A stretch of 64,000 nucleotides of DNA from Draconibacterium orientale (lineage in GTDB: Bacteria > Bacteroidota > Bacteroidia > Bacteroidales > FEN-979), in the NCBI GenBank assembly GCA_020718225.1, contig DYSO01000002.1, positions 5,361-69,360 on the forward strand. The letters are read 5' to 3'. The position numbers were made by a program, and so were the translations under genes. The notes below the pieces were generated by a model. That model ran no database searches and was not told where the DNA came from. It worked only from the letters and a program-made list of their open reading frames with translations. Within the stretch, counting starts at the first letter, position 1. Every line of letters begins with the position of its first letter. Positions 12 through 51,005 of this stretch are shown here, piece by piece.

Positions 12-153
12 GACAGGTTGGACAGGTTGAACAGGTTAACCTGGTTAACCTGGTTAACCCGGTTTAACATGGTCAACCTGGTTTAACCTGGTCCAACCTG
101 GTTTAACATGGTCAACCTGTTCCAACCTGTTCCAACCTGTTCCAACCTGTCAG
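12..153. repeat. Tandem array A: about 15 units of 9-10 nt. ACAGGTT-type units lie on the left, AACCTGGTT/AACATGGTC units in the middle and AACCTGTTCC units on the right. The ends are reverse complements of each other.
   Basis: Read directly: gacaggttg x2, aacaggtta, acctggtta x2, then aacctgttcc x3, then aacctgtcag. The right end overlaps the TGA stop (150-152, minus strand) of the transposase gene. Confidence 0.9.
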
Positions 154-713
154 TTTTCCAGGATGAACATTTTTATTTTTTCTTCATCTATTTCGGCAGA
201 GAGGTTTTCAGCAAGGGTTTTGCCATTATAAAAATATTTGGCAAGTTCCTCTTTGCAAATCAGACTTGGGCCGGAAGTAACGGTCGATCTGTACGATGAG
301 AACCGGTATCGTGAGTCATCATCGGCAATGCCATGTTTTCGGGCATTTTGATTGATATACCGGATCATTTCATAAAAATAATATTCCCGACGGATTTCAA
401 TACGCTTGAGTTTGAACTGAAACAATTTTCCTTCCTCTCCATTGTGGTTGTTATGCCCTTTGGCGTAAGCGTTGAAAAGTATGGAAAAAGGTCTGTACAG
501 GCTCCCTTCAGCATCACTTTTTATTCGCACCAGTAGATGAAGATGGTCTTTCAGAAGACAATAAGCATAGGTATCGGCAACAGGTGTGATATGCGATCGA
601 TATAGCCGAAGGAAAAACCGGTAATCTTCTTCATCTTCGAACAGTGGACCGCCATTTCTGGCCCGGTTATATATATGGTAATATTTTCCGGGCTCCAATA
701 ATAAAGTTTTCAT
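150..713 (-). CDS. IS200/IS605-type Y1 (HUH) transposase, RAYT-like
   Basis: 187-aa ORF. The HUH motif sits in KDHLHLLVRIK, and the catalytic-Tyr helix motif is MIRYINQNARKHGIA (the Y-x-x-x-N pattern typical of the Y1_Tnp / COG1943 family). It is flanked by repeat arrays. Confidence 0.8.
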   Translation of the reverse strand: MKTLLLEPGKYYHIYNRARNGGPLFEDEEDYRFFLRLYRSHITPVADTYAYCLLKDHLHLLVRIKSDAEGSLYRPFSILFNAYAKGHNNHNGEEGKLFQFKLKRIEIRREYYFYEMIRYINQNARKHGIADDDSRYRFSSYRSTVTSGPSLICKEELAKYFYNGKTLAENLSAEIDEEKIKMFILEN

Positions 714-822
714 AAGCAGTTTTTCTGCTTAATCGGAAAAACCTCAAAAAGTAATACGATTGTAAATTTTTTCCGAAAAATTCCAGATCCCCCTCTTTTT
801 CCTGTTAAACCAAGAAAAAACA

Positions 823-873
823 AGTTGACCAGGTTGACCAGGTTAACCTGGTTTAACCTGGTTTAACCTGTTA
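823..873. repeat. Tandem array B: 2x GACCAGGTT, a central GGTTAACC palindrome, then 2x AACCTGGTTT. It is an imperfect hairpin.
   Basis: Read directly: agttgaccaggttgaccaggttaacctggtttaacctggtttaacctg, followed immediately by tta, which is the stop codon of the minus-strand gene 871-3840. Confidence 0.9.
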
Positions 874-3840
874 CGGTTTATATACTACCCCCAGGTTCTT
901 TTTTCCGTCTATTGCAATCCGGATGGGTTTTTCGAAGTGGATGTGCCGGAGAAACTCATCTTCATAGGCTGCTGTTTGACCTGCCAGGTATTCAATATCA
1001 TAGAATCCATCGTTGATGAAAGGGTTTACCGTAAAATAGCCCACCCGGAATGAAGTGAGGTTTTGAAAAAAGTGGGTACCCTGGCTTGGGTCAATCCGGT
1101 AATGTTCGAGCCCCGATTCAACAATAAGCCTTGCTGCGCTGATCTGGGGCCATTTAACCGGGATTCCCAGCCATGGATCGCTGGAACCCCAGCGACCGGG
1201 GCCTACCAGTACATAATTTTTTTTCTCTGTTGTGAATTTATCGTTCAGCTTTTCAAGCAGATGAACTATTTCCTGGCTTTTTGAAGCATTAAAATTCTCA
1301 GGTTTTACGTAGACGAAATCGTGGATATTTTTAACGATGCCATTGCCCAGGGCAGTATTTGAAACCAGCAGCATATCTTCTTTACGGATATCTTCCGGCC
1401 GAAGGTTGATGGTTTCATCGCGTCCGGCGATGGGGCGGATCTGAAGCAAGCTGAAAATTTTGGGTTGTCCCTTGGGTAGATCGAGGTTTACCGCAAACTC
1501 AATTTCAACCGGTTTATTCATCTCCCGCTGACCTATTTCCAGCGCCTGGTTAAGAATTTCGGCCAAAGGAAAAGTATCATGATTAAGCAACTGCGAAAAA
1601 GTGATGATCCGTTTTCCATCGAATAAGGTCCCTTCTTTTAGTTGATGGCTCTCAAAATCAAAAGTTGATGCCACCATTTTCAAAGCGTTGTCATTTTCAG
1701 CATCCTTGATCCTCAGTTTCATGAGATTCACGGTATCATCCATGCTTGGTGCAAAACTCTCAGGACGGAGATCGAGGGCAAAAAAAGTTTTCTGTGTTTC
1801 ACTCAAGGCAAGGTCCGGAGTGGATAGTTGCAATATTTTTTTAGGATATTTCGGTGAAAACCGGATACCTATGCCACCATCAACGATATATTTCCCCAAT
1901 CCAAAAGCAATATTGGCAATGCCATCTTCTGGCTTCTCAGGGGCGATTGGATAAAAATTGATGGAACGGGCAACTCCCGAAATAGCCGGATAAAACCGAT
2001 CGCCATACTGGCGGCCGGTGACCTCCTGAAGCACAATCGCCATTTTTTCTTCGTCGATCATGTTAAGGGTCGCTGCCATGTATGATTTGCTATCTTTATA
2101 GTAGGCTGATGCATAAACACTTTTAATAGCATCCCCCAATTTATCGATCATGACCCGGTCGTTAAATTTAATATTTGGGATCATGTAGGTTGAATATATA
2201 CCTGCAAAAGGTTGATAATGTGAATCTTCGAGCAAACTTGAAGAACGGATCGCAATGGGGTTGTTGATACAGGAGATAAAACGGTACAGATCTTCATGGA
2301 TCCGGAAAGGCAACCTTGCTTTGACAAACCGCGCCAGAATATCTTTATCGCTCCGGTCGGAAAGGGCAATTTCATAGAGGTTGTTATCCTCCATAAACTC
2401 ATCAAAAATATCCGTTCCAAGAACCACTGTTCTGGGAATGGAAATAACAACATCCTCATACAGATCGGTAAGCCTGTTCCTTTTGATCAGGGAATCCAGA
2501 AATGCCAACCCCCGTGCTTTTCCGCCAATCGAACCTTCGCCGATACGGGCGAATTGCAGATATTCATCATAGCGGTCGCGGTCGAAATCGGCAATGACCC
2601 CTTTGGCTTTATTGATACGGAAAGCGGTGATGGAATCAAACAAATACCGTTTTGCTTCATCCATATCATTGGCGAATTCGGTTACCGATACTTCTTTAAA
2701 CATCTCGGCAATCGGGAATAAAGAGCGGGCATTCAACCATTTCGAAAAATGGTTCCGTTCCATATGATATAACAGGGAATCGTTCGGGATTTCAAAAATC
2801 TTATCCTGTAGTGATTTCAGGTCTACAGCCCGGGTGATCTCCCTTCCGTTTTTCGGATCGATGAAAATAAAATCGCCAAATGAAAAATATTCATTGATAT
2901 AATTCCGAAGTTCAATGGAAAGTGTTTTGGAAAGTTTGTTCAGGAACCCCACTTTCAGGTCATGGGCCAGGGTTTCGTATTCGGTATCGGTCGATTGAAA
3001 AAGAATGGGCATATAGGCATTTTCTGCACGGACTTTTTCAACGAATTTAATGCCTGCCGTTTTGTCGGTTACCCCGCCCCGCATAAAGCTGATATCGGTG
3101 ATAATCCCCAAAAGGTTTGCCTTATATTTTTCCCACATGCCAACGGCTTCTTCATAGTTGGTAGCAAGTAAAATTTTGCTCCGGCCACGCATCCTTAACA
3201 TTTTCTGGTGCTCGTTAAGGCCTTCGCTTACAGTAGTTTTCGATTGCTTCAGAAGAATTTTGTAAATATTTGGCAAATAGGTTGAATAAAAACGGATGGA
3301 ATCTTCAACCAGTAAGATGGCCTGTACCCCCTGTTTGACATCCTGGTCGATGTTCATTCTGTCCTCAATCAGTTTAATGATGGCCAACAGGATATCGGCA
3401 TTGCCAAGCCAGCTAAACACATAATCGATAGCGCTGAGGTCCTTTTCAACAAGTTTAAGGTTGACTTCGCGTGAAAAGGGAGTGAGTGCAACGATGGGTA
3501 TTGCCGGGTATTTTTTCTTGATCCGGATGGCCAGGTCGAAGGTGTCGGATTTTTCGATGTTCAGCATTGAAATAACCAATTCGACCCGCTTGTCTTCCAA
3601 CACTTCGAAGGCCTCTTCTTCCGAAGTGACTTTGAGAAACTGCGGCGGATAACGCAGGTTTAAAGAAACATATTCCAGAAAAATAGTCTCATCAATGCGG
3701 CCGTCTTCTTCCAGCATAAAAGCATCATAGGTGCTTGAAATAAGCAAGACCTGATATATCCGCCGTTTCATCAGAAGATTAAACGAGGTATCGATAAAGT
3801 AATACTTCTTCGGGTCCAGAACATTCTGTTTGTGCTTCAT
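871..3840 (-). CDS. Signal-transduction protein: pseudo-receiver + receiver + PEP/pyruvate-binding ATP-grasp domain (PPDK_N-like) + conserved C-terminal domain. It has no phosphohistidine swivel or PEP-utilizer TIM domain.
   Basis: 989-aa ORF. The first REC-like domain has VELVISMLNI, with no Asp at the acceptor position. The second has AILLVEDS, LLGIITDISF and PILFQST. ATP-grasp motifs are GGKARGLAFL, IRSSSLLEDS, PFAGIYSTY, and VEIEFAV followed by LLQIRP. The C-terminal domain carries GPGRWGSSDPWLGIPV and SQGTHFFQNLTS. It is a paralog of 10602-14477. Confidence 0.75.
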   Translation of the reverse strand: MKHKQNVLDPKKYYFIDTSFNLLMKRRIYQVLLISSTYDAFMLEEDGRIDETIFLEYVSLNLRYPPQFLKVTSEEEAFEVLEDKRVELVISMLNIEKSDTFDLAIRIKKKYPAIPIVALTPFSREVNLKLVEKDLSAIDYVFSWLGNADILLAIIKLIEDRMNIDQDVKQGVQAILLVEDSIRFYSTYLPNIYKILLKQSKTTVSEGLNEHQKMLRMRGRSKILLATNYEEAVGMWEKYKANLLGIITDISFMRGGVTDKTAGIKFVEKVRAENAYMPILFQSTDTEYETLAHDLKVGFLNKLSKTLSIELRNYINEYFSFGDFIFIDPKNGREITRAVDLKSLQDKIFEIPNDSLLYHMERNHFSKWLNARSLFPIAEMFKEVSVTEFANDMDEAKRYLFDSITAFRINKAKGVIADFDRDRYDEYLQFARIGEGSIGGKARGLAFLDSLIKRNRLTDLYEDVVISIPRTVVLGTDIFDEFMEDNNLYEIALSDRSDKDILARFVKARLPFRIHEDLYRFISCINNPIAIRSSSLLEDSHYQPFAGIYSTYMIPNIKFNDRVMIDKLGDAIKSVYASAYYKDSKSYMAATLNMIDEEKMAIVLQEVTGRQYGDRFYPAISGVARSINFYPIAPEKPEDGIANIAFGLGKYIVDGGIGIRFSPKYPKKILQLSTPDLALSETQKTFFALDLRPESFAPSMDDTVNLMKLRIKDAENDNALKMVASTFDFESHQLKEGTLFDGKRIITFSQLLNHDTFPLAEILNQALEIGQREMNKPVEIEFAVNLDLPKGQPKIFSLLQIRPIAGRDETINLRPEDIRKEDMLLVSNTALGNGIVKNIHDFVYVKPENFNASKSQEIVHLLEKLNDKFTTEKKNYVLVGPGRWGSSDPWLGIPVKWPQISAARLIVESGLEHYRIDPSQGTHFFQNLTSFRVGYFTVNPFINDGFYDIEYLAGQTAAYEDEFLRHIHFEKPIRIAIDGKKNLGVVYKP

Positions 3841-3882
3841 AACGCTATGTTTATCCGCGTTTTAACTCCATGAACAAAGGAT

Positions 3883-4338
3883 TTAATTTTCTCTCAGGAT
3901 ATAGTCATCGTATTCAACTTCAAACCGCAGTTTGTGTTTGGCCTCTTCCTGGGCGAGACTCAGAAATATACTACCGGTCCGGGAATCAGGGGCTGCTTCG
4001 GCTAATTCCGTGTACATCCGGTAGGCGGCCTTTTCCTTTTTCATGGCCAATATCAGGGCATCCTGATAGGTCATGTCCGGTGATGGTTTAATATCGACCA
4101 GGTATTCAGTTATTTTTAAGTCTTTGATTTTGGTCTCTGATAATTGAAAAGAACCATTTTCTTTTACTTTTATCAGATTTACTTTGTGGCGCATCTCCTC
4201 TTCGGCAAAATCGGTAAAGACCTCTTTGCTTTGTCTGCTTTTTGACTGACCGGCTAACATGAGATAAAAATCAACAGCAGCCTGTTCTTCCCCGATTGCA
4301 AAATCGAGGATATCTTCGATTGTTTTAAATTCTTTCAT
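3883..4338 (-). CDS. Rubrerythrin/ferritin-like diiron protein without a rubredoxin domain
   Basis: 151-aa ORF with two E-x-x-H diiron motifs (AEEEMRH, AQEEAKH) plus glutamates in GEEQAAVDFY. It is co-directional with the upstream oxidoreductase genes, with a 29-nt gap. Confidence 0.65.
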   Translation of the reverse strand: MKEFKTIEDILDFAIGEEQAAVDFYLMLAGQSKSRQSKEVFTDFAEEEMRHKVNLIKVKENGSFQLSETKIKDLKITEYLVDIKPSPDMTYQDALILAMKKEKAAYRMYTELAEAAPDSRTGSIFLSLAQEEAKHKLRFEVEYDDYILREN

Positions 4339-4367
4339 ATGGTTTTATTTAATTTTTTGATCCCTGT

Positions 4368-7300
4368 TTATTCTACTGAAAAGGCCTTATTGAATTCCTC
4401 ATCGAATCTTTTCACCAATGCGTCGCACCCATGCTTGAACAGTTTGATATGATTATCGCCGTCAGTGGGTTGCAACGTGTGTTTTTCATGGTCTCTTTTT
4501 CCGGGAAGAAGGGCAATGGCTTCCAAAAAAACATCCTGGGGGTTATCGGCTGCCGGCAATCCAAGCCGGTTGATTATGGAAGACAGTTGTTCCAGGGAAG
4601 TCATGGTTATCTTCGATTTTAACCCGGGATGAAACTCCTGTATCACTTTCTGTGTATTGGTATAGGAGCCACCAGTTTCGACCGGCATGGAAGCGGGCAG
4701 TATTAAATCGGAAGCCATGGCTGTCGGGGTCAGAAAATAATCCTGAACCACTTTAAAAGGCGCTTTCTCAAAAATGTCCTGAACGGTTGTGCTGTCTACC
4801 GCACAACCCATGGGGTCCTCACCGAAAATAAACAAATTTCTGATCCTGCCTTCCATTAATTGTGCATGAAGTGGTTTGGACACACCTCCTGCAATGTTTG
4901 CGGTTTTCCATTGTTCCCGGCATCGTTGGGCAAAGGCTTCATCTGACAGATCCTGGCCTCCGATACCCTTTTCCGGTACAATTCCCATATCAAACAAACC
5001 GTGTGCGTTGTTTTTCTCCTTTAATGAGATGATCCCGTTGGCGGTCTTTCCAAGTTTCCCGGTAATACAGGCAAGATTAAAAATCTCTTTACTGGTATTG
5101 GCTGAAATCTCCTTTTCCGAAAACAAGATGATGGCATTCATTTCCTTGTTATAAGATTCGGCAAAATCAGAAATTTCCCCTCCGGCAATTCCCGATTTCA
5201 TGACCAGATGTTCATAATCCTCCTGCAACAACCCGTTTTTATAGCCTTCCAGTCCTGTTACCCGGTCGTTGAGGAAAAGTCTGTTTTCCAATCCGTGTGA
5301 AAGCAGATAGTGGTTAACCGCTCTGATGAAATAATAATATGATTTTATGGTGAGCAGCCCATCCACTTTATGTGCCATGGTATGGCACTCTTTTTCAGTG
5401 ACCATGATTACCGGCGTTTTCTTCAGATAACGTGCATGCTGTACCATAAACCCCACCACCGCATGATCCTGGTTTATCTCCGTCCCTATGAGGTAGAGTT
5501 TACTGGCATGGGATATCTGGTCAAAAGGCACATTGTATTCGCTGTTGCTGCGATACCCTTCGCCTCTGCCAAGATAATGAAAACTACCGACATTATTTGT
5601 TTTTACAGCCCCCCGTGCCAGCTTCTGTATCATATACAATTCCTCATTTGATAAACGGGCGCCGCCAAAAAATGCATTTTCATCAGGTTTAGCCAAACCA
5701 ATCTTTTCAACAATCACTTCAATGGCTTTTTCGAATGTGATGGTTTCAAATTTGCCATCGACCTTCATTAAAGGTTTAGTAATTCGCTGTTTATCATTGA
5801 AGTATGAATAACCAAAAGCTGCATATTTGCATAGGTTCCCATCGCTGTTTACCAATCCGTTCCGGCCGGTTACACGCATTACAAAACCATTTTTATGGTG
5901 GAGGGTCAAAGCGCATCCAACAGAACAGTAATTGCAGATAGTATCGATGGTATCGGTTTTAACAGGGCCGGGTTTAAACAGGACATTTTCGGAAATAGCT
6001 CCGGTAGGACAGGTTGAGATACACAAACCGCAGGATTCGCAATGGGTGTTTTGGAGAGAATCGCCCATACTTGGGGCAACATAGGTGTCGAAGCCCCGGT
6101 TGATCAACCCAAGGGCATTGGCCCCTGCCACTTCGCGGCAAATCCGGATGCAGCGGGCACAGAGAATACATTTGTTATTGTCGATCTCAACATAAGGATG
6201 GCGAAAATCAACCGTATATTCTTTGAATTCACCGGAATAGGCAGTTTGCCGGGCTTCATACTCTGTAGAATAACGCTGGAGGCTGCAATCAAAAAAAGCG
6301 GTGCAGCCACATTCGAGACACCTTTGGGCTTCGTGTCGGGCCACCTCTTCATTGGAATAGCCCAATTCCACCTCTTTAAAATTAATCCTCTCATTGGCTG
6401 GCAACACAGGCATCTCCTCGCGAAGCTGAAACGCATAATGTCCCTGAAAATCTTCTTTAACCTGTTTCTTAAAATGGTCTCGTTTACTGGTAAATGGTTT
6501 GGGAACGGGCAACATGGGCAATCCCATCAGAAATTGATGGGCGCTGGTTGAGGCAATCCTGGCCTGAGCAATGGCCGCGATGATGGTAGCCGGTCCGGTC
6601 ACCCCGTCGCCGGCGGCAAAAATGGATGAGACCCCTGTTTGCAGGGTTGCTTTATCGGTATCGATATCGCCCCATTTATTGATCTTCAATTCCCCGTTGG
6701 ATGTATTCTGGTTGATATCATGGATAAAATCAACGTCTGTTTTCTGGCCAATGGCAGCCAATATATAATCCACATTCAGTTCGAAATCTGAACCTTCAAC
6801 AGGGACAGGTCTCCGACGACCTGAGGTATCGGGTTCTCCCAATTCCATTTTGATACAGGTAACCGATTGCACTTCACCCCGTTCATTTTTATTGATTTTT
6901 TTGGGTAAGGTAAGAAAAAGATACTCCACCCCTTCCAGTTTGGATTCATGAATTTCTATGGGATTGGCTGGCATCTCCTTTTCCGTCCGGCGATAAATCA
7001 CATATACCTTATCGGCATGGCAGCGAACCGATGTCCGGCAACAATCCATAGCTGTATTTCCGCCTCCCACGACCGCAATGGTCTTCCCCCGGAAATCGTA
7101 GTGTTGGCCGGTAACTTCCATGTTTTTTAAGAAATCGATACCCGAAAATACATTTTCCGCGTCATCGCCTTCACATCCAACCCCGGTCCCTTTCTGGGAA
7201 CCTATGGTGAGAATCAATGCATCATACTTTTCTTTCAGCTCCTTATAGCTCAGGTTGCCACCCAACCGCTGGTTATAAAAAATCCGGACACCCAGGTCGG

Positions 7301-8072
7301 TAATATTTTTTACCTCCTCATCCAGGATGTCATTCGGTAAACGATATTCCGGGATTCCATACCGAAGCCATCCACCGGATTTTGGGGCAGCTTCATAAAT
7401 ATCCGCCTGATGACCTTCAATCTGCATAAAATGGCCGGTTGACAAGCCGCCCGGGCCTGCCCCGATGACAGCAATCCGTTTTCCTGTAGAAGGTTTTACG
7501 ACAGGGATATATCTATTTGGAGATGTCAGGTCATAATCCGATGCAAACCTTTTCAGATAATCAATCCCAACAGGGGCTCCTTCATCCAGAAGGTTGCGAC
7601 GGCATTCGGCTTCACAGGGACGGACGCATACCCGGCCACATATGGCAGGCAACGGGTTTGTCTCCTTAATAAGGGCAACCGCCTCACGATACAGTCCCTT
7701 ATCGATCAAGGAAATATAACCCTGAACATCCACCCCGGCAGGACAAGTTTGTTTGCAGGGGCCTATGCAATCAGCATAATGGTTGCTCAGCATGAGTTCC
7801 AACGCCATCCGGCGCGATTTCCGGATGGCTGCATTGTCGGTAACGATTTTCATCCCTTCCGTAAGTTTCGTGGAGCATGAAGGTTGATGCCCGCGCATCC
7901 CTTCCACTTCGACAACACACAGGTAGCACGAAGTAAAAGGTTCGAGACGGTCGTCGTTGCATAAGGTGGGAATATCAACGCCATGCCGCTTTGCAAGGTC
8001 AAGGATGGTCTCTCCGGAAAACCCCTTTACGATATTTCCGTTCAGAATGATATTTAAAGAATTGTCAGCCAT
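4368..8072 (-). CDS. Multidomain Fe-S flavoprotein: [2Fe-2S] ferredoxin + GltD/NfnB-like NAD(P)H/FAD module + 2x[4Fe-4S] + molybdopterin-oxidoreductase-like (NuoG/FdhA-like) domain
   Basis: The start is taken at MADNSLNI (ATG 8072), because the 37 codons upstream only translate the heptamer array. Motifs: CNDDRLEPFTSCYLC ([2Fe-2S]); CGRVCVRPCEAEC; RIAVIGAGPGGLS (FAD); IAVVGGGNTAMDC (NAD(P)H); AAGDGVTGPATII; CILCARCIRIC and CESCGLCISTCP (ferredoxin-type clusters); CNYCSVGCAL followed by NLCKYAAFG (MopB Fe4S4 domain). Confidence 0.75.
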   Translation of the reverse strand: MADNSLNIILNGNIVKGFSGETILDLAKRHGVDIPTLCNDDRLEPFTSCYLCVVEVEGMRGHQPSCSTKLTEGMKIVTDNAAIRKSRRMALELMLSNHYADCIGPCKQTCPAGVDVQGYISLIDKGLYREAVALIKETNPLPAICGRVCVRPCEAECRRNLLDEGAPVGIDYLKRFASDYDLTSPNRYIPVVKPSTGKRIAVIGAGPGGLSTGHFMQIEGHQADIYEAAPKSGGWLRYGIPEYRLPNDILDEEVKNITDLGVRIFYNQRLGGNLSYKELKEKYDALILTIGSQKGTGVGCEGDDAENVFSGIDFLKNMEVTGQHYDFRGKTIAVVGGGNTAMDCCRTSVRCHADKVYVIYRRTEKEMPANPIEIHESKLEGVEYLFLTLPKKINKNERGEVQSVTCIKMELGEPDTSGRRRPVPVEGSDFELNVDYILAAIGQKTDVDFIHDINQNTSNGELKINKWGDIDTDKATLQTGVSSIFAAGDGVTGPATIIAAIAQARIASTSAHQFLMGLPMLPVPKPFTSKRDHFKKQVKEDFQGHYAFQLREEMPVLPANERINFKEVELGYSNEEVARHEAQRCLECGCTAFFDCSLQRYSTEYEARQTAYSGEFKEYTVDFRHPYVEIDNNKCILCARCIRICREVAGANALGLINRGFDTYVAPSMGDSLQNTHCESCGLCISTCPTGAISENVLFKPGPVKTDTIDTICNYCSVGCALTLHHKNGFVMRVTGRNGLVNSDGNLCKYAAFGYSYFNDKQRITKPLMKVDGKFETITFEKAIEVIVEKIGLAKPDENAFFGGARLSNEELYMIQKLARGAVKTNNVGSFHYLGRGEGYRSNSEYNVPFDQISHASKLYLIGTEINQDHAVVGFMVQHARYLKKTPVIMVTEKECHTMAHKVDGLLTIKSYYYFIRAVNHYLLSHGLENRLFLNDRVTGLEGYKNGLLQEDYEHLVMKSGIAGGEISDFAESYNKEMNAIILFSEKEISANTSKEIFNLACITGKLGKTANGIISLKEKNNAHGLFDMGIVPEKGIGGQDLSDEAFAQRCREQWKTANIAGGVSKPLHAQLMEGRIRNLFIFGEDPMGCAVDSTTVQDIFEKAPFKVVQDYFLTPTAMASDLILPASMPVETGGSYTNTQKVIQEFHPGLKSKITMTSLEQLSSIINRLGLPAADNPQDVFLEAIALLPGKRDHEKHTLQPTDGDNHIKLFKHGCDALVKRFDEEFNKAFSVE

Positions 8073-8085
8073 TGGGATAAGTATT

Positions 8086-8131
8086 GGTGAGGGGTGAGTG
8101 GTGAGTAGTGAGTGGTGAGTGGTGAGTGGTG
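8086..8131. repeat. Tandem array C: 6.5 units of the heptamer GGTGAGT
   Basis: Read directly: ggtgagg ggtgagt ggtgagt agtgagt ggtgagt ggtgagt ggtg, then tta, the stop of gene 8132-9907. The array ends 13 nt before the next start codon at 8072. Confidence 0.9.
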
Positions 8132-9907
8132 TTATGATAGTAAGATAGCATCGAACTTGCATTTTGAGTAGCAAACGCCGCATTTCGTACAGATATTCTG
8201 ATTGATTGTGTGGGGTTGTTTACGTTCTCCTGTGATGGCTTGTACCGGGCAGTTTTTCAGGCAAACCATACAGCCCGTGCATTTTTCGGTATCTACCCGA
8301 TAGGTCAACAAAGGTCGGCAAACCTTTGCCGGACATTTTTTATGGCGGATATGGGCTTCATATTCATCGCGAAAATAACGGATGGTAGTCAATACCGGGT
8401 TGGGGGCTGTTTGCCCTAAACCGCATAACGAATTTTCTTTAATCTGAAAGGCCAGTTCTTCCAGTTTTTCGATATCCCCTTCCTGACCCTGTCCATTGGT
8501 TATGCGATCGAGGATTTCCAGCATCCGTTTGGTCCCCATCCGGCAGAAAGTACATTTACCGCAACTTTCTTTACGGGTAAAGTCGAGAAAAAATTTTGCC
8601 ACATCCACCATACAGGTAGTTTCATCCATAACCACCATTCCTCCCGATCCCATAATGGCACCTGTGGCATTGACCGAATCATAATCAATGATGGTATCGG
8701 CCAGGAATTCGGGGATACAACCACCCGATGGGCCTCCCATCTGTACCGCTTTAAACTTTTTATCGTTTTTTATCCCCCCCCCAAGCTTAAAGATGACCTC
8801 CCGGATGGTCATTCCCATGGGGACTTCAACAAGTCCTGAATGACGTATTTTTCCGGCCAATGCGAAAACTTTGGTCCCTTTGCTTTTTTCGGTTCCGTAT
8901 TGTGCATACGCTTCGGCACCGTTCATGATGATCCATGGGATATTGGCAAAGGTCTCCACATTATTGATGTTGGTGGGCTTTTTCCAAAGACCGGAAACTG
9001 CCGGAAACGGAGGCCGTTTGCGGGGCATTCCGCGTTCGCCTTCGATGGAGGCGATCAGGGCCGTCTCTTCACCACAAACAAAAGCGCCTGCCCCCTCTTT
9101 GATATAAATATCGAAATTAAACTCTTCTATTCCGAAAAGATTTTTTCCGAGATAGCCCCTTTCATGAGCCTGTCGGATGGCAATATTTAACCGCTTGATG
9201 GCAAGCGGATATTCAGCGCGGCAATAGATTACACCTCCTGTGGCGCCGATGGCATAAGCAGCGATGACCATCCCCTCAAGTACCAAATGGGGATCGCCCT
9301 CCAATACAGAACGATCCATAAAAGCGCCGGGATCACCCTCATCGGCATTGCAAATAATATATTTTTCGGCCGATTTATTGGCATGGGCAAATTTCCATTT
9401 CATCCCCGTGGGAAACCCACCGCCCCCACGACCACGCAACCCCGACCTGAGAACCGTATCAATCACCTCTTCCTGCCGCGTCTTTTCTGCGGCAATTTTT
9501 TTTATCGCCAGATACCCTTTCCGTTTTTCATAATCGTCGATGGATTCAGGATCCATATACCCGCAATTCCGGAGTACTATTTTAACCTGGGATTCCAGGA
9601 AATCATTTTCGGGAGCATCAAATAAATCGGTATAAACAATATAATCGCGAATGGGATCGTGCTGATTGATGTGTTTTTCGATGACTTCGATGGCGCGATC
9701 GGCATCTACCTCCCCATACAGATAGGTCCCGGTATCATCGGTAATCTCAACCAAAGGCTCACGGTAACACATGCCCACACAACTGGTTTTCCGAAGTTCA
9801 AAATGTAAGTTTTCGGTCTCCTTTAGCGCCTGGATCTTTTCAAAGGTCTTTTTTGCACCGGCAGCAATGCCGCAACTTCCAAGACCAACTGTGACGGTAG
9901 GTATCAT
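8132..9907 (-). CDS. NuoF/HydB-like NADH-binding FMN/Fe-S subunit with an N-terminal thioredoxin-like [2Fe-2S] domain and a C-terminal 2x[4Fe-4S] ferredoxin domain
   Basis: 591-aa ORF. Motifs: GLRGRGGGGFPTGMKWKF (FMN/NADH site), ESCGKCTFCRMG (N3-type cluster), CTGCMVCLKNCP and CTKCGVCYSKC, and an N-terminal GLGSCGIAAGA followed by CVGMCYREP. Confidence 0.85.
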   Translation of the reverse strand: MIPTVTVGLGSCGIAAGAKKTFEKIQALKETENLHFELRKTSCVGMCYREPLVEITDDTGTYLYGEVDADRAIEVIEKHINQHDPIRDYIVYTDLFDAPENDFLESQVKIVLRNCGYMDPESIDDYEKRKGYLAIKKIAAEKTRQEEVIDTVLRSGLRGRGGGGFPTGMKWKFAHANKSAEKYIICNADEGDPGAFMDRSVLEGDPHLVLEGMVIAAYAIGATGGVIYCRAEYPLAIKRLNIAIRQAHERGYLGKNLFGIEEFNFDIYIKEGAGAFVCGEETALIASIEGERGMPRKRPPFPAVSGLWKKPTNINNVETFANIPWIIMNGAEAYAQYGTEKSKGTKVFALAGKIRHSGLVEVPMGMTIREVIFKLGGGIKNDKKFKAVQMGGPSGGCIPEFLADTIIDYDSVNATGAIMGSGGMVVMDETTCMVDVAKFFLDFTRKESCGKCTFCRMGTKRMLEILDRITNGQGQEGDIEKLEELAFQIKENSLCGLGQTAPNPVLTTIRYFRDEYEAHIRHKKCPAKVCRPLLTYRVDTEKCTGCMVCLKNCPVQAITGERKQPHTINQNICTKCGVCYSKCKFDAILLS

Positions 9908-9988
9908 TTTTTATGTTGTTAAATTTTAAAATGTGAGGTGCTGGCTTTTATATTTTTGTTAAGCCCCCGGTGATTTGTCACTTGATTT

Positions 9989-10510
9989 TCAACCTGCTTT
10001 CTCGTTTAACCGGATATTTTTTACAATTTTTACTGCTTCATTGCCTGTGAGTTTCCCATATGTCTGGTCACCAATCATCATAACCGGGGCAAGGGAACAA
10101 CAGCCCAGACAGGCTACCGATTCGAGGGTATAGAACCGGTCGTCGGTGGTTTGTCCATCCTTAATTCTCAATGCTTCTTCGAGTGACTCACTGATTTCCA
10201 ATGCATTTTGGACATGACATGCGGTTCCATGACAAACCTTAATAATGTATTTTCCTACCGGATGAAGCCTGAATTGGGCGTAAAATGTTGCCACCCCGAA
10301 CAAATCGCTCAAGGGGATCGCGGCATCTCTGGAAATTTTTTCAAAAACAGCTTTGGGAATATGCCCAAAAAGCTCCTGGGCGCCCTGTAAAAGGGGAATA
10401 AGGTTTCCTTTCTTCCCTTTATATTTCACAATCAGGGGATCAAGCAAACTCAGTTCAAGGCCATCACTTTCAATGACCTTATCGATAGAATGTATCCGGA
10501 CAACACGCAT
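9989..10510 (-). CDS. NuoE/HydC-like thioredoxin-like [2Fe-2S] ferredoxin subunit
   Basis: Cluster motifs are CHGTACHV and CLGCCSLAP. The start is taken at MRVVRIHS (ATG 10510), because the 55 upstream codons overlap array D and the 3' end of the upstream gene. Confidence 0.8.
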   Translation of the reverse strand: MRVVRIHSIDKVIESDGLELSLLDPLIVKYKGKKGNLIPLLQGAQELFGHIPKAVFEKISRDAAIPLSDLFGVATFYAQFRLHPVGKYIIKVCHGTACHVQNALEISESLEEALRIKDGQTTDDRFYTLESVACLGCCSLAPVMMIGDQTYGKLTGNEAVKIVKNIRLNEKAG

Positions 10511-10557
10511 ATTTCTTGATTTTATAAAAACACCCTGCAATAACCCCCTATTAAAAA

Positions 10558-10601
10558 CACCTGTCCAACCTGTCCACCTGTCCAACCTGTCCAACCCGTT
10601 C
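10558..10601. repeat. Tandem array D: 5 units of C(A)ACCTGTC, ending in CAACCCGTTC
   Basis: Read directly: cacctgtc caacctgtc cacctgtc caacctgtc caacccgttc, then tta, the stop of gene 10602-14477. It lies 47 nt upstream of the nuoE-like start. Confidence 0.9.
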
Positions 10602-13600
10602 TTACTTTTCCTCTTCCCAGGTAATGACCGAAATACGTTTCTTTCCGTCCATTCTGATACAGAGCGGGTGGTCAAAATGGATGATTGAGAAAAAATCTGT
10701 TTTCCTTAGATTTTTCTGGCTTTTTAAAATATCATATCGGATAAAACTGTTGGTCAATTCAGGCTGGATGCAAAAGTAACCCACATTCATAGAGGTTACA
10801 TTATGGAAAAAATGAGATCCTGACGAGGCATCGAGTGGAAATCCTTCAAGGCTGGTTTCGACAATGATCTTGGCATGGCTGATCTGAGGCCATGCAACCG
10901 GGATACCAATCCAGCGGTCGCGTGTGCCCCATCGTCCCGGGCCAATCAGGACATAATTTTTTCCCTCTCTTCCCATCTCAGCATTAATGGTATCAATCTC
11001 CGCCGCCATTTCAACGGTCTTCGATTTGTCGAAGGTATCCGGATCTACAAAAATTACATCGTAAATATTGTCAATCAATCCGTTGCCCATCTCTTTTTCA
11101 GAATACAGAAGGATTTGGTCCCGGTTGATCTTCTCCATATCAATATGAAAATCGGTAGCATTGCCGATCAGTGGTTTTATCTGAAGCAGATAGAAAGAAG
11201 CTTTATTATCGTCATCCTTGTTCAGATCGATGGCAAACTCCATTTCCACCGGTGAACCCAGCGCCTCTTTGACTACATCGAGCACCACTTCAATGGTTTT
11301 TGCAAGGGGAATATAGTTGTATTTTAAAATATCGGCAAAGTTGAGTACCCGCGGGCCGCCATCGCGTAATCCGGCAGTAATCCGATCATTTTCAACGGAA
11401 TAAACCGAAGCGCAGTGCTTCAGGGTCCCATGCATTTCGGCATCGTAGATATCCATTTTCCGAAGGCCGGCATCTTCGCCTTCCAACAGGTTCATCTCCT
11501 TTTTTTGCAGATCCACGGCATAAAAATAGACCTGCGACCCTTTGTACTGATCCTTTGGCGAATTGATTTCAAGAGTTGGATACAAGGGTGAAAAACGGAA
11601 TGCCTTTTCTCCCTCAACCACATAGCGTCCAAGGCCTAATGCAATTACGGCAAACCCCTCTTCGGGTTTCATATGGGCAAATGGATAATAATTATAGGAT
11701 TGGGCAACTCCGCTGATATGTGGATAGTACACATCGGCATATTGGTTTCCGACGACCTCCTGGATTACAACGGCCATCTTTTCCTGCTCTATGCGATAAT
11801 TAACCGCTTCGATGTACCCCTTGGCAATGGGGGAATACACGGAAGCATAAACCAGTTTGATTGCATCCATCAATTGATCAAGCCGCACTTTTGGGTCCGG
11901 ATGACAATTGGGGATCAGGTAGGTTTCGAAGATTCCTGCAAAAGGCTGATTAAGAGAATCTTCAAAGAGTCCGGAAGAACGTATTGCCAAAGGCTTCGTG
12001 ATATTTTTAATGATTAATTTCAACTTCCGGATAAGGGTTTCTGTGAGCCTGCCTTCCAAAAACCACCTTTTTATCTGGTCATAATCTGACTCATAGACTG
12101 CTTTTTCCCTCAATTTATTCCTGTCAAGGAAATATTCAAATTCATCGGTACCCACAATGGAGGTTTTCGGGGTACGGATTTTAATGTTGGGGATGTGTTG
12201 AGAAAAATCGTAATTGTATATTAACGTGTTGATAAAAGCGAGCCCGCGTCCTTTTCCCCCCAACGCCCCTTCGGTCAGCGCCAGGATATTACGTTCGTCG
12301 GATATAGCCGATTCCTCAAAAGGGATCACCTTCCCGGTATTTTGTTCGTTGCGGAAATGCTGGATCACATTGATGAGGTATTCGCGTAACGAAGTCGGAT
12401 CTTTAAAATCGGTCACTTTTGCCGGGTTCAGTATCTTGGCAACCTGAATTTCTCCACGGGCCATCAGCCAAAGGGAGAAGTGGTCTTTCCGTGCATGATA
12501 TAAGAGAGATTCTTCCGGGATGGTCTTTAGTAAATCCTCAAATTCTTTCAGCGAACGTGCAACAGCGATCTGGGTACCCTCCTGATCGCGATAAATAAAA
12601 CTGCCAAATCCCAGATAATGGGTAATGAAACTTTTAAAATCAAGAAGCAGGGTTTCTGAATTTTTATTAATAAAAGAGGCTTTTAATTCATATGCTCTCT
12701 GGGCATTAATTTCATCGGACGACTGCATCACAATGGGAAGGTCTTTAATCTCCTTCCGGGTCTGCCTGACCAGGCTGAACCCCGCCGTATTGTTCAGTTT
12801 GCCATCCTTTTTAAATTTCACATCTGAAATGAGACAAAGGATAAAGTCTTTGTACTTGTTAAAAATATAGAGGGCCTCTTCATAAGTTGAGGCCAATAGA
12901 ATTTTCGGTCGTGCTTTCAGTCTGAGGATGCGGTACAATTCATCGGTAGTAACATCCTCAATGATGTTTTTAGTCTGTTCCAGCACGATATTGTACAACA
13001 TCGGAAGGTATAATGAATAATACTTTGAGGAATCTTCTACCAGCAGGATGACCCGTGTCATGCCAATGGTGGTATCGTTTTCCACATTGATTTTGTCTTC
13101 CAGATAGTTGATCATTGCGAAGAAGATCTTGGAATCGCCATTCCAGACAAAAATCCGGTCGACCCAGGTCAGTTTTTCAGGTTCTTCTTCATATTTAGCG
13201 ATCTCTGTATTGCTGTTCAATAAAAGGAATACGGGAATATACTGATATTTTTCCTTGACGGTTTTACTCAGTTCTACCGGGAATTGTTTATCCGTACCGA
13301 TCATGATGATGATCAGGTCGTAATGTTTCAGACTGAGTTGTTCCATTACCTCACCGATCGTTGATACACCGGTGATCCGTGGCATGGTACTCAGGCTCAG
13401 TGCATAAAATTCCCCCAGTACATGTTCTGAAAAACGGCCTTCCTTTTCGATGCTATAAGCGTCATAGAGATTGGCGACCAATAATATCTCTTTGACTTTA
13501 AAAGGCATCAGGTCATGATACAGGTCGCGGTTATAGTTGGTACGATTTAAAAAGGTCTGGAGGAGTTGACGGCTGTATTTAACCGGGCCGGAAGCATCCG

Positions 13601-14477
13601 GTTGGGGTTCCGTCACCTCTTTCTGTACCGTTTTCCGCAGGATGGCCTTACCTTTAATAGAATTCAGATAACCGGCGATCAGGTTGGCCAGATTGATAAT
13701 AAGATGGCGCTCCTCTTCAAGGAAAGGTCCTTCAAATTGTGGGGGAAATGCTTTCAGGTAACAAATCTCAATAAACCCCGAAAGGTTGTCAATGGTTTCG
13801 AAAGGTTGAATCTGGGCCCACTGGGTTTCAACGAAACCCGGACTTATAAGTTCGAGGTTCCCATATTTAATACGGCATACCGTATATTCGGGATATTGCC
13901 AGGCCGTAGGCAGGATCAGGCAGATTTGGTGAAGGGCCTCTTCATTTGGTTTCCCTGCGCGAAGGATGGCAGTGGTCTGGTTAATGGCGCTGAGTTCCTT
14001 TAGTCTTTCCCGGGTAATGTACCGCCCCTCCCTGCCTTTTACCGCGTTGAGGTACCCTTCAATCAAACTGGCCAGGTTCAGTATTAAATGGCGCTCTTCT
14101 TTCAAAAATGGCCCCTCATCTGCCTCGGGAAATTCTTTCAGATAAAAAACCTCAATAGAACCAGTGAGGCTGTCGATGGTTTCAAAAGCCTGTAATTGTC
14201 TCCATTGTGTTTCCAGAAATCCCTGACTTGTAAATTCCATCTCTTCGTAACGTATCCGCGCTACTGCATGTCCTGGATATTGCCAGGCATGCGGCAGAAG
14301 CTGACAAATCTCAAAAAGGGTTTCGTAAACAGGTTTATTGCCCCTGATAATAGCAGCTGTTTCATTAATCGCGGCCAATTCTTTGAGCCGTTCCTGATTA
14401 TCATAAGCCAGCTTTTCAAAACTGCCGGAACCCGGGCCGGAGATTACTGAGTTTAATCCTTTATCGTTTGTCAACAT
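10602..14477 (-). CDS. Sensor/signal-transduction protein: 2x duplicated N-terminal GAF-like sensor domain + pseudo-REC + REC + PPDK_N ATP-grasp + conserved C-terminal domain
   Basis: The ATG at 14477 (MLTNDKG) is preferred over the TTG at 14501. The two 120-aa repeats begin ERLKELAAINET and ERLKELSAINQT. The pseudo-REC has YDLIIIMIGTD. The REC has VILLVEDS, LCLISDVKF and VMQSS. ATP-grasp motifs are GGKGRGLAFI, IRSSGLFEDS, PFAGIFETY, and VEMEFAI followed by LLQIKP. The C-terminal domain carries GPGRWGTRDRWIGIPV and SSGSHFFHNVTS. Confidence 0.75.
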   Translation of the reverse strand: MLTNDKGLNSVISGPGSGSFEKLAYDNQERLKELAAINETAAIIRGNKPVYETLFEICQLLPHAWQYPGHAVARIRYEEMEFTSQGFLETQWRQLQAFETIDSLTGSIEVFYLKEFPEADEGPFLKEERHLILNLASLIEGYLNAVKGREGRYITRERLKELSAINQTTAILRAGKPNEEALHQICLILPTAWQYPEYTVCRIKYGNLELISPGFVETQWAQIQPFETIDNLSGFIEICYLKAFPPQFEGPFLEEERHLIINLANLIAGYLNSIKGKAILRKTVQKEVTEPQPDASGPVKYSRQLLQTFLNRTNYNRDLYHDLMPFKVKEILLVANLYDAYSIEKEGRFSEHVLGEFYALSLSTMPRITGVSTIGEVMEQLSLKHYDLIIIMIGTDKQFPVELSKTVKEKYQYIPVFLLLNSNTEIAKYEEEPEKLTWVDRIFVWNGDSKIFFAMINYLEDKINVENDTTIGMTRVILLVEDSSKYYSLYLPMLYNIVLEQTKNIIEDVTTDELYRILRLKARPKILLASTYEEALYIFNKYKDFILCLISDVKFKKDGKLNNTAGFSLVRQTRKEIKDLPIVMQSSDEINAQRAYELKASFINKNSETLLLDFKSFITHYLGFGSFIYRDQEGTQIAVARSLKEFEDLLKTIPEESLLYHARKDHFSLWLMARGEIQVAKILNPAKVTDFKDPTSLREYLINVIQHFRNEQNTGKVIPFEESAISDERNILALTEGALGGKGRGLAFINTLIYNYDFSQHIPNIKIRTPKTSIVGTDEFEYFLDRNKLREKAVYESDYDQIKRWFLEGRLTETLIRKLKLIIKNITKPLAIRSSGLFEDSLNQPFAGIFETYLIPNCHPDPKVRLDQLMDAIKLVYASVYSPIAKGYIEAVNYRIEQEKMAVVIQEVVGNQYADVYYPHISGVAQSYNYYPFAHMKPEEGFAVIALGLGRYVVEGEKAFRFSPLYPTLEINSPKDQYKGSQVYFYAVDLQKKEMNLLEGEDAGLRKMDIYDAEMHGTLKHCASVYSVENDRITAGLRDGGPRVLNFADILKYNYIPLAKTIEVVLDVVKEALGSPVEMEFAIDLNKDDDNKASFYLLQIKPLIGNATDFHIDMEKINRDQILLYSEKEMGNGLIDNIYDVIFVDPDTFDKSKTVEMAAEIDTINAEMGREGKNYVLIGPGRWGTRDRWIGIPVAWPQISHAKIIVETSLEGFPLDASSGSHFFHNVTSMNVGYFCIQPELTNSFIRYDILKSQKNLRKTDFFSIIHFDHPLCIRMDGKKRISVITWEEEK

Positions 14478-14690
14478 CGGGAAATGGGATGGAAATGCCA
14501 AAATTAAAATAATTCTGTTATCAATTTGTAAGATAATGACGACTTTTATAAAGTTCAGTATAATTCGTACTCTTATATACGCAGGATACGTATGTATTGT
14601 AAGTGCATTTCTTATCTAATTGAATAAGAATTAATTATATTTCAATTTATGGTAATTTTTACATCGTTGCATTAAAATATTAGTTAATAT

Positions 14691-14706
14691 TGTGAAAATT
14701 TTCACG
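14691..14706. promoter_or_regulatory. Candidate Crp/Fnr-type operator (TGTGA-N6-TCACG) upstream of gdhA
   Basis: tgtgaaaattttcacg contains the perfect 14-bp palindrome gtgaaaattttcac. Its centre is 65 nt upstream of the gdhA ATG, in the divergent intergenic region 14478-14762. Confidence 0.4.
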
Positions 14707-14762
14707 TTCTTTTATCCATTTTTATACATTATTAATACCCCATCACTTAAAATCCAACCATT

Positions 14763-16121: not shown

Positions 16122-16147
16122 TCACCTGATTTTGTTTATAATCCAAA

Positions 16148-16180
16148 GGGGGATCCGGGATACCGGGTCCCCCTGTTTTT
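16148..16180 (+). terminator. Rho-independent terminator of gdhA, shared by the convergent gene pair
   Basis: gggggatccgg-gata-ccgggtccccc forms an 11-bp stem (one G-U pair) with a GATA loop, followed by tgttttt. It lies 27 nt after the gdhA stop. Confidence 0.8.
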
Positions 16181-23322: not shown

Positions 23323-23332
23323 AAAATATTCG

Positions 23333-23340
23333 TACTTTTG
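23333..23340 (+). promoter_or_regulatory. Bacteroidota -7 promoter box (TAnnTTTG) for phoH
   Basis: TACTTTTG lies 25 nt upstream of the ATG at 23365. Confidence 0.5.
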
Positions 23341-23346
23341 CGTAAT

Positions 23347-23354
23347 CAAAGGTA
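23347..23354 (-). promoter_or_regulatory. Bacteroidota -7 promoter box (TAnnTTTG) for the DUF62 gene
   Basis: TACCTTTG on the minus strand (caaaggta on plus) lies 25 nt upstream of the ATG at 23322. Confidence 0.5.
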
Positions 23355-23364
23355 TAAATTTTTC

Positions 23365-48744: not shown

Positions 48745-48771
48745 GTTAATGGTTATTGAATTTGCTTGTTA

Positions 48772-48779
48772 CAAACTTA
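48772..48779 (-). promoter_or_regulatory. Bacteroidota -7 promoter box within the conserved TAAGTTTGTAACAA context
   Basis: TAAGTTTG on the minus strand lies 28 nt upstream of the ATG at 48744. Confidence 0.5.
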
Positions 48780-48887
48780 CAAAAAAAAGAGACAGGATCA
48801 ATTTAATTGGGAACTATTTTCAATCTATTCGACAACCTGAAATGAACAAACGGTAAATCTTCTATTTCGCCGGATTAAATTTCGATG

Positions 48888-48923
48888 AAAAAAAAAGCTG
48901 CCCCCTCATGGAAGCAGCTTTTT
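48888..48923 (-). terminator. Rho-independent (bidirectional-looking) terminator of gene 48942-50957
   Basis: Stem agctgc / gcagct with a 12-nt loop. It is flanked by 9 A residues on one side and 5 T residues on the other, so the minus strand reads stem followed by TTTTTTTTT. Confidence 0.75.
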
Positions 48924-48941
48924 CTTTGAAGTTGGAAAATG

Positions 48942-50957: not shown

Positions 50958-51005
50958 GGGTTTGGTTTTTGGTTTGACTTGGTTTTTTTAAAATATTTCA
51001 TTGTA

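Follow-up and report, generated by a model that had tools for sequence, protein, structure and literature searches.

Which process is served by two large and similar proteins whose genes stand at either end of an oxidoreductase operon in the genome of Draconibacterium orientale? The question arises from a 64,000-nucleotide stretch (hereafter, the window) of assembly GCA_020718225.1, contig DYSO01000002.1, positions 5,361–69,360 of the forward strand, to which all coordinates below are relative. We refer to the gene at 871–3840 as A, the gene at 10602–14477 as B, and glutamate dehydrogenase as GDH. The initial annotation described A and B as two paralogues that combine receiver-like domains with an ATP-grasp domain, and proposed that they sense or regulate the redox enzyme encoded between them. 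Our analysis shows that GDH is the dominant conserved genomic partner of this family, an association that is strong but not obligatory. In our preferred reading, which is tentative and to which we give slightly less than even weight, A and B are a pair of phospho-Asp-gated, dikinase-like signalling enzymes that would act on the GDH/NADPH node and not on the bracketed oxidoreductase as such. The genes concerned are as follows.

871–3840, minus strand: protein A, 989 aa, with a pseudo-receiver, a receiver, an OrfY-like linker, an ATP-grasp domain, and a C-terminal His-domain (the 'X-type' of the family; open reading frame [ORF] listing, translation, and Pfam)
3883–4338, minus strand: rubrerythrin, 151 aa (Pfam PF02915, E = 1e-16), its position kept in related genomes
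4368–8183, minus strand: StnC/NfnA-like large subunit, 1271 aa, with 2Fe-2S, GltD-like NADPH flavoprotein, and NuoG/Fdh-like FeS-molybdopterin-fold domains (Pfam)
8132–9907, minus strand: StnB/NuoF-like NADH-binding FMN subunit, 591 aa (Complex1_51K, NADH_4Fe-4S; nuoF_fam, E = 9e-148)
9989–10675, minus strand: StnA/NuoE-like 2Fe-2S subunit, maximal ORF (2Fe-2S_thioredx, E = 2.5e-46, residues 81–221)
10602–14477, minus strand: protein B, 1291 aa, with two GAF-like repeats followed by the same five-domain body as A
14763–16121, plus strand: NADP-specific GDH, divergent from B (Pfam; NF006929, 773 bits against a cut-off of 536)

A and B are true paralogues, and their resemblance is far beyond chance: BLASTP aligned them over 968 residues at 39% identity and 60% similarity, with 9 gaps (E = 0). 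B has 1291 residues counted from its ATG and 1299 in the maximal ORF, which starts with a TTG at 14501. Each of the motif strings quoted in the initial annotation was located by regular expression at the expected position in both proteins (ELVISMLNI / DLIIIMIGTD, LLGIITDISF / LCLISDVKF, GGK(A/G)RGLAF, IRSS(S/G)L(L/F)EDS, PFAGI, LLQI(R/K)P, GPGRWG..D.W(L/I)GIPV.WPQIS, and G(T/S)HFF(Q/H)N(L/V)TS), and BLASTP and Pfam bear out the shared architecture as well. At the catalytic columns B matches A with the exception of R802 (A), which is Lys in B; the acceptor of B is Asp552 and its C-terminal His is His1222. All genes from 871 to 14477 lie on the minus strand with short gaps between them, the single same-strand block that had been described. 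The gene pair and its motifs had been read correctly, but the GAF-like repeats of B, the Stn/NfnABC identity of the enclosed operon, and the divergent gdh gene were missed. The spacer between B and gdh is 285 bp long and AT-rich. A promoter and terminator scan of 600–16400 gave counts at or below shuffled expectation, with a promoter model that is unsuited to Bacteroidota; a strong terminator was found after gdh (16147–16174). Compared to PDB sequences, A gave weak receiver matches only, and its ATP-grasp and C-terminal half gave none. The domains discussed below are located as follows.

3337–3768, minus strand: pseudo-receiver of A, residues 25–168, with Met92 at the acceptor position (weak Response_reg match, E = 6e-5)
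2896–3333, minus strand: receiver of A, residues 170–315, with a ~40-aa insertion after strand 1 (Pfam PF00072)
2533–2895, minus strand: linker of A, residues 316–436, OrfY/DUF5752-like fold (weak Pfam, AlphaFold2 [AF2], and Foldseek)
1378–2532, minus strand: ATP-grasp domain of A (PpsA/PPDK-type, PPDK_N), residues 437–821 (Pfam E = 2.8e-39, profile positions 3–326 of 328)
874–1377, minus strand: C-terminal domain of A, residues 822–989, family-specific (AF2, alignments)
10605–11117, minus strand: C-terminal His-domain of B, with GPGRWGTRD and SSGSH1222FF
13638–14414, minus strand: N-terminal extension of B, with two ~125-aa GAF-like repeats (14028–14414 and 13638–14027)

Conservation was assessed in an alignment of 24 diverse family members, reaching down to 31% identity and including one Thermoplasmata archaeon. 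The acceptor column of the first receiver-like domain, which had been described as lacking the acceptor Asp, is never Asp in these 24 members (F, V, N, T, M, or A instead). The pocket of the second receiver of A consists of E179, D180, D249 (the acceptor), S283, and K302; the acceptor Asp, correctly assigned at the outset (D249 in A, D552 in B), is kept in 22 of the 24 members, the Ser/Thr in 23, and the Lys in 22. PF00072 reached 41.2 bits in A from two stretches (cut-off: 30.2), and each receiver half scored alone gave 23–26 bits, under this cut-off. The receivers of B are under the Pfam threshold, yet they are 39% identical to A across both receivers. Pfam recovered PPDK_N in A and B and Response_reg in A, in keeping with the annotated architecture. 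By in silico receiver criteria, both proteins qualify as response regulators.

The linker contains an invariant W368 and a nearly invariant R372. DUF5752 (PF19027) scored 16–19 bits in A and B (cut-off: 23) and 25.5 bits in the relative P0237, and it is among the precomputed matches of several relatives. For the AF2 model of the linker (predicted local distance difference test score [pLDDT] 82), the best Foldseek match was 4cso, OrfY of Thermoproteus tenax (probability 0.97, E-value 0.45), with a TM score of 0.48 and a root-mean-square deviation of 2.3 Å over 85 columns. Judging from this model, OrfY is the only credible structural relative of the linker, and the weak DUF5752 matches agree. 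In the ATP-grasp domain, which in B was matched at residues 746–1113 of the 1299-aa ORF (738–1105 from the ATG; E = 1.3e-39), the residues of the motifs GGK.R, RSS..ED, E.E, and Q are invariant in the 24 members (in A, K441, R443, R532, S533, E538, D539, E779, E781, and Q800). The largely kept receiver pocket and the invariant ATP-grasp residues fit the predicted 'phosphorylation-controlled nucleotide-using output module' of the initial annotation.

The C-terminal domain follows the ATP-grasp domain, at the C-terminal end of the module, wherever the architecture was checked. Its motifs in A are G832-N-G834, G880-x-G-R883-W-G885, and S919-x-G-x-H923-F-F, and its invariants in the family are G-N-G, GxGRWG, GxP, and SxGxHFF. 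The His of GxHFF, already singled out as conserved, is invariant in every aligned member (both the 24-sequence alignment and a 35-sequence alignment) and also in distant paralogues of the Y and S forms (see below). The AF2 model of the domain, based on the 35-sequence alignment (pLDDT 91.3, pTM 0.88), places this His at the N-terminus of a helix (fragment residues 125–133), after S-x-G-(T/S). Such a position, at a helix N-terminus following small residues, is the usual geometry in phospho-His carriers such as PpsA/PPDK with its G-G-x-T-S-H. Foldseek comparison of the model to the PDB gave no match at E ≤ 1e-3 (best TM 0.36) and no PPDK, PpsA, EI, or RPH chain among its matches; Pfam gave no match to the domain even at E ≤ 10, and a profile search of PDB sequences returned no chain of a phosphoenolpyruvate (PEP) utilizer at E ≤ 10. 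According to the model, the domain is confidently folded and without a recognizable relative among solved structures. Pfam found neither the PEP-utilizers swivel (PF00391) nor PEP-utilizers_C (PF02896) in A or B, and both proteins end ~170 aa past the ATP-grasp domain, with no sequence left for a TIM barrel. The reported absence of swivel and barrel is thus borne out by Pfam, Foldseek, and the profile search. A divergent swivel (GNG, NYVLVGPG, and GTHFF compared to G.G.a.G, eILVa..t.P, and TSHAA) was considered for this domain and rejected on the same negatives; a circularly permuted swivel fold at the C-terminus may lie beyond the reach of these tests.

B has an extra N-terminal region of ~320 aa, whose two repeats are 60% identical to each other. 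Their match to GAF is weak: two of six aligned members matched at E = 0.005, and a profile search reached the Nlh2 GAF structure 4g3v at E = 0.58. The repeats are homologous to the N-terminus of Y-type paralogues from other phyla (30–36% identity), and between one and four copies occur in B-like relatives. The family is large, with >8000 database relatives of the full-length query and at least 1764 clusters (50% identity, E ≤ 1e-3) for the C-terminal domain alone, and each of the 49 full-length 50%-cluster representatives can be aligned to A and B across ~970 aa. Named sources include Bacteroidales, Chlorobi, Zixibacteria, Chrysiogenia, an alphaproteobacterial metagenome-assembled genome (MAG), and Thermoplasmata archaea. 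Sequence alignment shows the same five domains in members from Bacteroidota through to Thermoplasmata archaea. In the searchable literature we found no functional study of the family, its architecture, DUF5752, or PF01326 together with GDH, in agreement with the initial annotation. Nor did we find there any description of a response regulator whose output is a dikinase-type ATP-grasp domain, or of an enzyme of the PPDK_N type that carries its His in a non-swivel domain.

The gdh gene beside B has counterparts next to family members in distant genomes. In all six distant look-ups (Chrysiogenia, a 383-kb contig, an 'Alphaproteobacteria' MAG, Zixibacteria, a Thermoplasmata archaeon, and a 327-kb JGI contig), GDH adjoins a family member. 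In four of the six it precedes the family gene on the same strand at a distance of 9–140 bp (9 bp in the 383-kb contig), and a Y gene and a Metallophos gene are also present in four. At L082, GDH is encoded on the opposite strand, three genes downstream; L083 has a second GDH copy ~2.9 kb further upstream. We also collected 80 diverse metagenome loci, seeded with an archaeal member, 65 of which have usable flanks; these loci come without taxonomy, and those that are related do not count as independent samples in phylogenetic terms. Of the 65 well-flanked loci, 36 contain GDH, and in 37 of the 80 it lies ≤500 bp from a family gene (32 of these among the 65), on the same strand in 32 of the 37. 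Unbiased clustering of flanking ORFs recovered GDH at 39 of the 80 loci, a NarL-type regulator at eight, and a PAS-HisKA_3 kinase at six. Among Bacteroidales (80 species-representative genomes with an A orthologue, 61–90% identity), GDH is the top neighbour by ORF clustering (24 of 80 loci). Because a genome of 3–5 Mb carries one to three GDH genes, we estimate chance adjacency at ~0.1–1%. The GDHs near the family belong to two subfamilies (70–77% and 33–35% identity to the GDH of the window), and at five loci GDH is placed between two family members (X-GDH-X: L105, L115, L116, L143, and L161). The six distant look-ups, the two subfamilies, and the varied orientations argue for repeated retention of the GDH adjacency.

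A PAS-HisKA_3 kinase and a NarL-type regulator occur between family genes and GDH at three loci (X-HK-RR-GDH-X: L104, L105, and L161), the regulator with only a short kinase fragment at L115, and the regulator alone at L085; the kinase is a candidate cognate kinase for the receiver of the family. Among the cargo genes between or near the pair (Stn, NfnAB-like, and amino-acid permeases), every type would, by its predicted function, bear on glutamate or NADPH.

We consider it quite probable that the function of the family is bound up with the GDH/NADPH node, as opposed to Stn specifically. In the mechanism that we propose for A and B, an unlinked histidine kinase (in some lineages, the cluster-encoded PAS-HisKA_3 kinase) would phosphorylate Asp249 of A and Asp552 of B, and receiver phosphorylation would relieve or impose an interdomain block on the ATP-grasp domain via the pseudo-receiver and the OrfY-like linker. 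By analogy to PpsA/PPDK, the ATP-grasp domain would then phosphorylate His923 (A) or His1222 (B) with ATP, with the C-terminal domain replacing the swivel; we regard this His-phosphotransfer mechanism as possible, if on the doubtful side. The phosphoryl group would be passed on, with the neighbouring NADP-GDH as the likeliest target and the partner family member next, and a covalent modification of GDH itself by the family seems to us unlikely, though worth serious consideration. Glutamate synthesis and breakdown would thereby be matched to nitrogen status and to the NADPH supply from the co-encoded Stn complex. The GAF-like repeats of B may sense the nitrogen status or a metabolite input, and the two proteins may function jointly, whether in one heteromer or in opposition to each other. 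The pool of NADPH used by NADP-GDH would be filled or drained by the Stn complex, which shares the transcription unit, so that the block would form one glutamate/NADPH module. Taken as a whole, the proposal of an ATP-driven covalent-control system for GDH, with a new phosphohistidine domain replacing the PpsA swivel from Bacteroidota to Thermoplasmata and with coupling to NADPH-generating transhydrogenases, is rather unlikely; such a system would be to GDH what GlnD/GlnE are to glutamine synthetase or AceK is to isocitrate dehydrogenase. A role of the Y-type paralogue and the Metallophos phosphoesterase, where present, in such control of GDH is to be viewed with similar doubt.

Several points weigh against this reading. 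The functional statements throughout rest on sequence, models, and gene neighbourhood, and a shared neighbourhood could mean co-regulation only. About half of the well-flanked metagenome loci are without GDH within 10 kb, which makes the link to GDH non-obligatory. The C-terminal domain is like no known phosphocarrier, and its His could therefore equally be read as a catalytic base or a ligand. Trans-acting genes near gdhA of B. thetaiotaomicron were reportedly described by Baggio and Morrison in 1996, but this lead on GDH control is unsupported: BT_1971, next to what we take to be gdhA (BT_1970), encodes a catalase. A reversible inactivation of GDH in B. fragilis is also said to have been reported; the report was not found and is not used here. 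Finally, no histidine kinase is located beside the pair in the window, and the sole one seen lies 47 kb away:

61042–63513, minus strand: hybrid histidine kinase with HisKA, HATPase_c, and two receiver stretches, and no link to A or B

The scarcity of kinases is accommodated by a self-contained phosphorelay, in which the ATP-grasp and His-domains would form a non-canonical histidine kinase for the receiver of the same or the partner protein and the output would be a protein–protein interaction with GDH or other proteins. One and the same polypeptide does carry both the invariant His and the conserved acceptor Asp, most loci have no classical kinase nearby, and the receiver-less Y and S forms, which keep the ATP-grasp and the His-domain, could donate to X-type receivers; EI of PTS-Ntr, which combines a GAF domain with a PEP-driven His relay in nitrogen sensing, is a functional analogue. 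However, two of the 24 aligned members have lost the Asp and keep the His and the ATP-grasp domain, some clusters encode a classical HisKA_3 kinase, and we know of no ATP-grasp that feeds a receiver domain. We judge the phosphorelay improbable.

The variant forms of the family bear on another explanation. The S form (~580 aa) consists of the ATP-grasp and C-terminal domains only. The Y form (~1060 aa) begins with a B-like, GAF-like N-terminus, a region without assignment, and an ATP-grasp domain, and ends with a homologue of the His-domain that keeps GRWG and the His, followed by a canonical minimal nucleotidyltransferase (GS...DxD). Y genes were found at six loci (L082, L083, L085, L086, L088, and L146), beside X and GDH in bacteria and in one archaeon. 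A Metallophos phosphoesterase gene usually follows Y, and Metallophos adjoins at seven loci (the same six and L133). Natural S+Y fusions (P0127, P0154, and P0196) represent three separate 50% clusters, and pairing is typical of the family, as A+B, X+Y, or S-Y fusions. Compared to the PDB, the Y nucleotidyltransferase and Metallophos gave only a weak match to a 'putative nucleotidyltransferase'.

These proteins could be metabolic enzymes, either an ATP-grasp ligase or dikinase for a small molecule of glutamate/2-oxoglutarate metabolism or a synthase of a nucleotide-derived effector. The strictly conserved catalytic residues and the metabolic nature of the neighbouring genes are in favour, as are the nearest NCBIfam models (PpsA, PigC, RedH, and rifamycin phosphotransferase, all matched far under their cut-offs), and the nucleotidyltransferase of Y and the adjacent Metallophos genes point the same way. 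On the other hand, a protein of 1000–1300 aa that bears GAF-like sensors and a pair of receiver-type domains is typical of signalling, Foldseek recognized no candidate substrate-binding fold in the C-terminal model, and the 64-kb window contains neither a Y-type paralogue nor a Metallophos gene. The enzyme explanation has, in our view, a low probability; so does its corollary that the C-terminal domain binds the substrate and the receiver merely tunes activity, and we give equally little weight to the version for lineages with Y and Metallophos, in which the set would make and break a signalling or storage compound.

The proposal that the pair is a dedicated sensor or regulator of the oxidoreductase between the two genes depends on what this enzyme is and how often it accompanies the family. 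The 'NuoEF-like genes' of the initial annotation do encode NuoE- and NuoF-like subunits, and the identification can be refined: from its subunits, the operon is an NADH/ferredoxin:NADP transhydrogenase of the Stn/NfnABC type (Bfu family) with a rubrerythrin, by predicted activity (for this enzyme type, see PMC7483475 and PMC10482914). The large subunit matched 9bov_A (1e-228), 8oh5_C (StnC of the Stn complex; 2e-214), and 9n5u_A (NfnA; 4e-183) in the PDB. As listed, the NuoE-like ORF extends 74 nt into the 3' end of B, solely because of an upstream TTG. Its true start is probably near 10507, without a real overlap with B, because the Pfam match begins at residue 81 and the relative at L167 has 172 aa. 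A 52-nt overlap with the NuoF-like gene likewise follows from the start listed for the large subunit (8183).

At the other end of the block, directly downstream of A, lies a gene for a REP-associated tyrosine transposase (RAYT; NF047646, E = 2e-11; 150–713, minus strand). RAYT homologues (58–79% identity) are found downstream of A in ~9 related genomes, directly after A in seven (L001, L003, L004, L009, L011, L023, and L040) and several kb off in two (L007 and L028). This position is unusually stable for the gene of a mobile element.

Among the Bacteroidales loci, 54 have at least 4 kb of upstream flank and were used to count the arrangement of B and A. Both genes are present in one locus in 35 of the 54, and no B was seen in the remaining 19. 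The oxidoreductase lies between B and A in 14 loci, nothing lies between them in 18 (tandem, with gaps of 12–119 bp), and other genes do so in three, namely NfnAB-like genes (L022) or amino-acid permeases and a symporter (L049 and L076). The order B-StnA-StnB-StnC-rubrerythrin-A is kept in these 14 loci (sequenced close relatives, ≥72% identity) and in L138, L141, and L167; among the Bacteroidales genomes it is limited to the closest clade. The present sample suggests that Stn was inserted once and late. In L167, a 3.5-Mb contig, rubrerythrin and A are separated by an AbiEii/DUF6922 toxin-antitoxin pair (7883–9017) of opposite strand, and A can consequently be transcribed on its own there. A NuoF-like gene is found in 17 of the 80 Bacteroidales loci and in 3–4 of the 80 diverse metagenome loci (three by ORF clustering).

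Dedication to the bracketed enzyme therefore finds support in one Bacteroidales clade, in the Stn-like genes near the family at L041, L075, and L091, and in the NfnAB-like genes between B and A (L022) or near the family (L083, L089, and L146). Against it stand the rarity of the NuoF-like gene, the tandem B-A loci, the toxin-antitoxin pair that parts A from the operon, and the many lineages that carry the family without such an enzyme nearby. The co-occurrence with the oxidoreductase genes is clade-limited, which speaks against the initial proposal as a general rule, and the redox/NADPH theme recurs independently, which speaks for it; because Nfn- and Stn-like genes reappear near the family in this way, the proposal is upheld, but only in part. 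The recurring redox link is coherent with NADPH supply to an NADP-dependent GDH. As a full account of A and B, a dedicated Stn regulator is very improbable.

Least of all does the notion survive that A and B are ordinary PEP synthase or PPDK homologues with a divergent or permuted C-terminal swivel, which is effectively refuted: the PPDK_N domain, the 'phosphoenolpyruvate synthase' among database names, and a superficial likeness of G-T-H-F-F to T-S-H-A-A speak for it, but PEP-utilizers and PEP-utilizers_C are unmatched even at E ≤ 10, the NCBIfam PpsA models reach 18–54 bits (cut-offs: 598–883), the C-terminal model (pLDDT 91) is unlike PPDK, PpsA, EI, and RPH structures with a negative profile search besides, and no residues remain for a TIM barrel.

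Compared to known systems, A and B appear to combine two familiar kinds of protein, an enzymatic response regulator and an enzyme of the PpsA superfamily. They share with PpsA/PPDK a homologous N-terminal ATP-grasp domain (PPDK_N, E ~1e-39) that keeps the GGK, RSS..ED, E.E, and Q ligands, and an invariant His that lies downstream of it, after small residues at a helix N-terminus. Unlike PpsA/PPDK, they lack the swivel and TIM barrel, carry the His in a ~170-aa domain without a recognizable structural relative, have ~435 aa of receiver and linker in front, and belong to a family that partners GDH and not gluconeogenesis genes. RPH and PigC/RedH likewise have a PPDK_N-type ATP-grasp domain without a TIM barrel, indicating a module re-usable for other substrates, but they retain a canonical swivel His domain and a small-molecule-binding domain and have no receivers; in NCBIfam, the PigC model gave 45–52 bits (cut-off: 1300) and the RPH model 18 bits (cut-off: 999), the cut-offs of the RPH, PigC, and RedH models ranging from 999 to 1350. 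With CheB, PleD/WspR, RpfG, and PorX, the pair shares an enzymatic domain preceded by a receiver whose Asp pocket is complete, and a tandem of pseudo-receiver and receiver is known, for example, from PleD. The ATP-grasp/dikinase-type output, the ~40-aa receiver insertion, and the OrfY/DUF5752-like linker unique to the family set A and B apart from those regulators.

Further parallels are functional analogies only. EI-Ntr (PtsP), which reports nitrogen status, unites a GAF sensor with a His phosphotransfer enzyme of the PpsA/EI superfamily; GlnD/GlnE place glutamine synthetase under nucleotidyltransferase-based covalent control; and AceK is a kinase/phosphatase for isocitrate dehydrogenase at a branch point. 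Except for the ATP-grasp superfamily link to PpsA, these systems have no homology to A and B, whose proposed energy source is ATP and not PEP. The enclosed operon resembles Stn/NfnABC in its NuoE-like, NuoF-like, and fused GltD- and NuoG-like subunits, with the large subunit matched over most of its length; it differs in the longer C-terminal molybdopterin-fold domain of the large subunit (1271 aa) and in the rubrerythrin gene that follows.

GDH stands where carbon, nitrogen, and redox metabolism meet and is, in Bacteroidota and many anaerobes, the chief path by which ammonium is assimilated. These organisms are not known to possess NtrBC/GlnD/GlnE circuitry of the classical kind. The family is a concrete and testable candidate for the missing post-translational control of their GDH, because it joins intact receiver, ATP-grasp, and invariant-His modules to GDH adjacency in bacteria and archaea. 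A covalent-control system directed at GDH would, if true, be categorically new, and if the proposed mechanism holds, the family would represent a new output class for two-component signalling and a new phosphohistidine domain in the PpsA/PPDK superfamily. In any case, the database name 'phosphoenolpyruvate synthase' is wrong here and misleads the metabolic reconstruction of Bacteroidales MAGs.

Two further features of the window are recorded here.

22543–24264, minus strand: 573-aa protein with SAM hydroxide adenosyltransferase domains at residues 318–566 only, the N-terminal 317 aa being without a Pfam match
46921–53007, minus strand: three consecutive paralogues of 607–671 aa, in which the C-terminal Por_Secre_tail (type IX secretion sorting) is the only domain recognized

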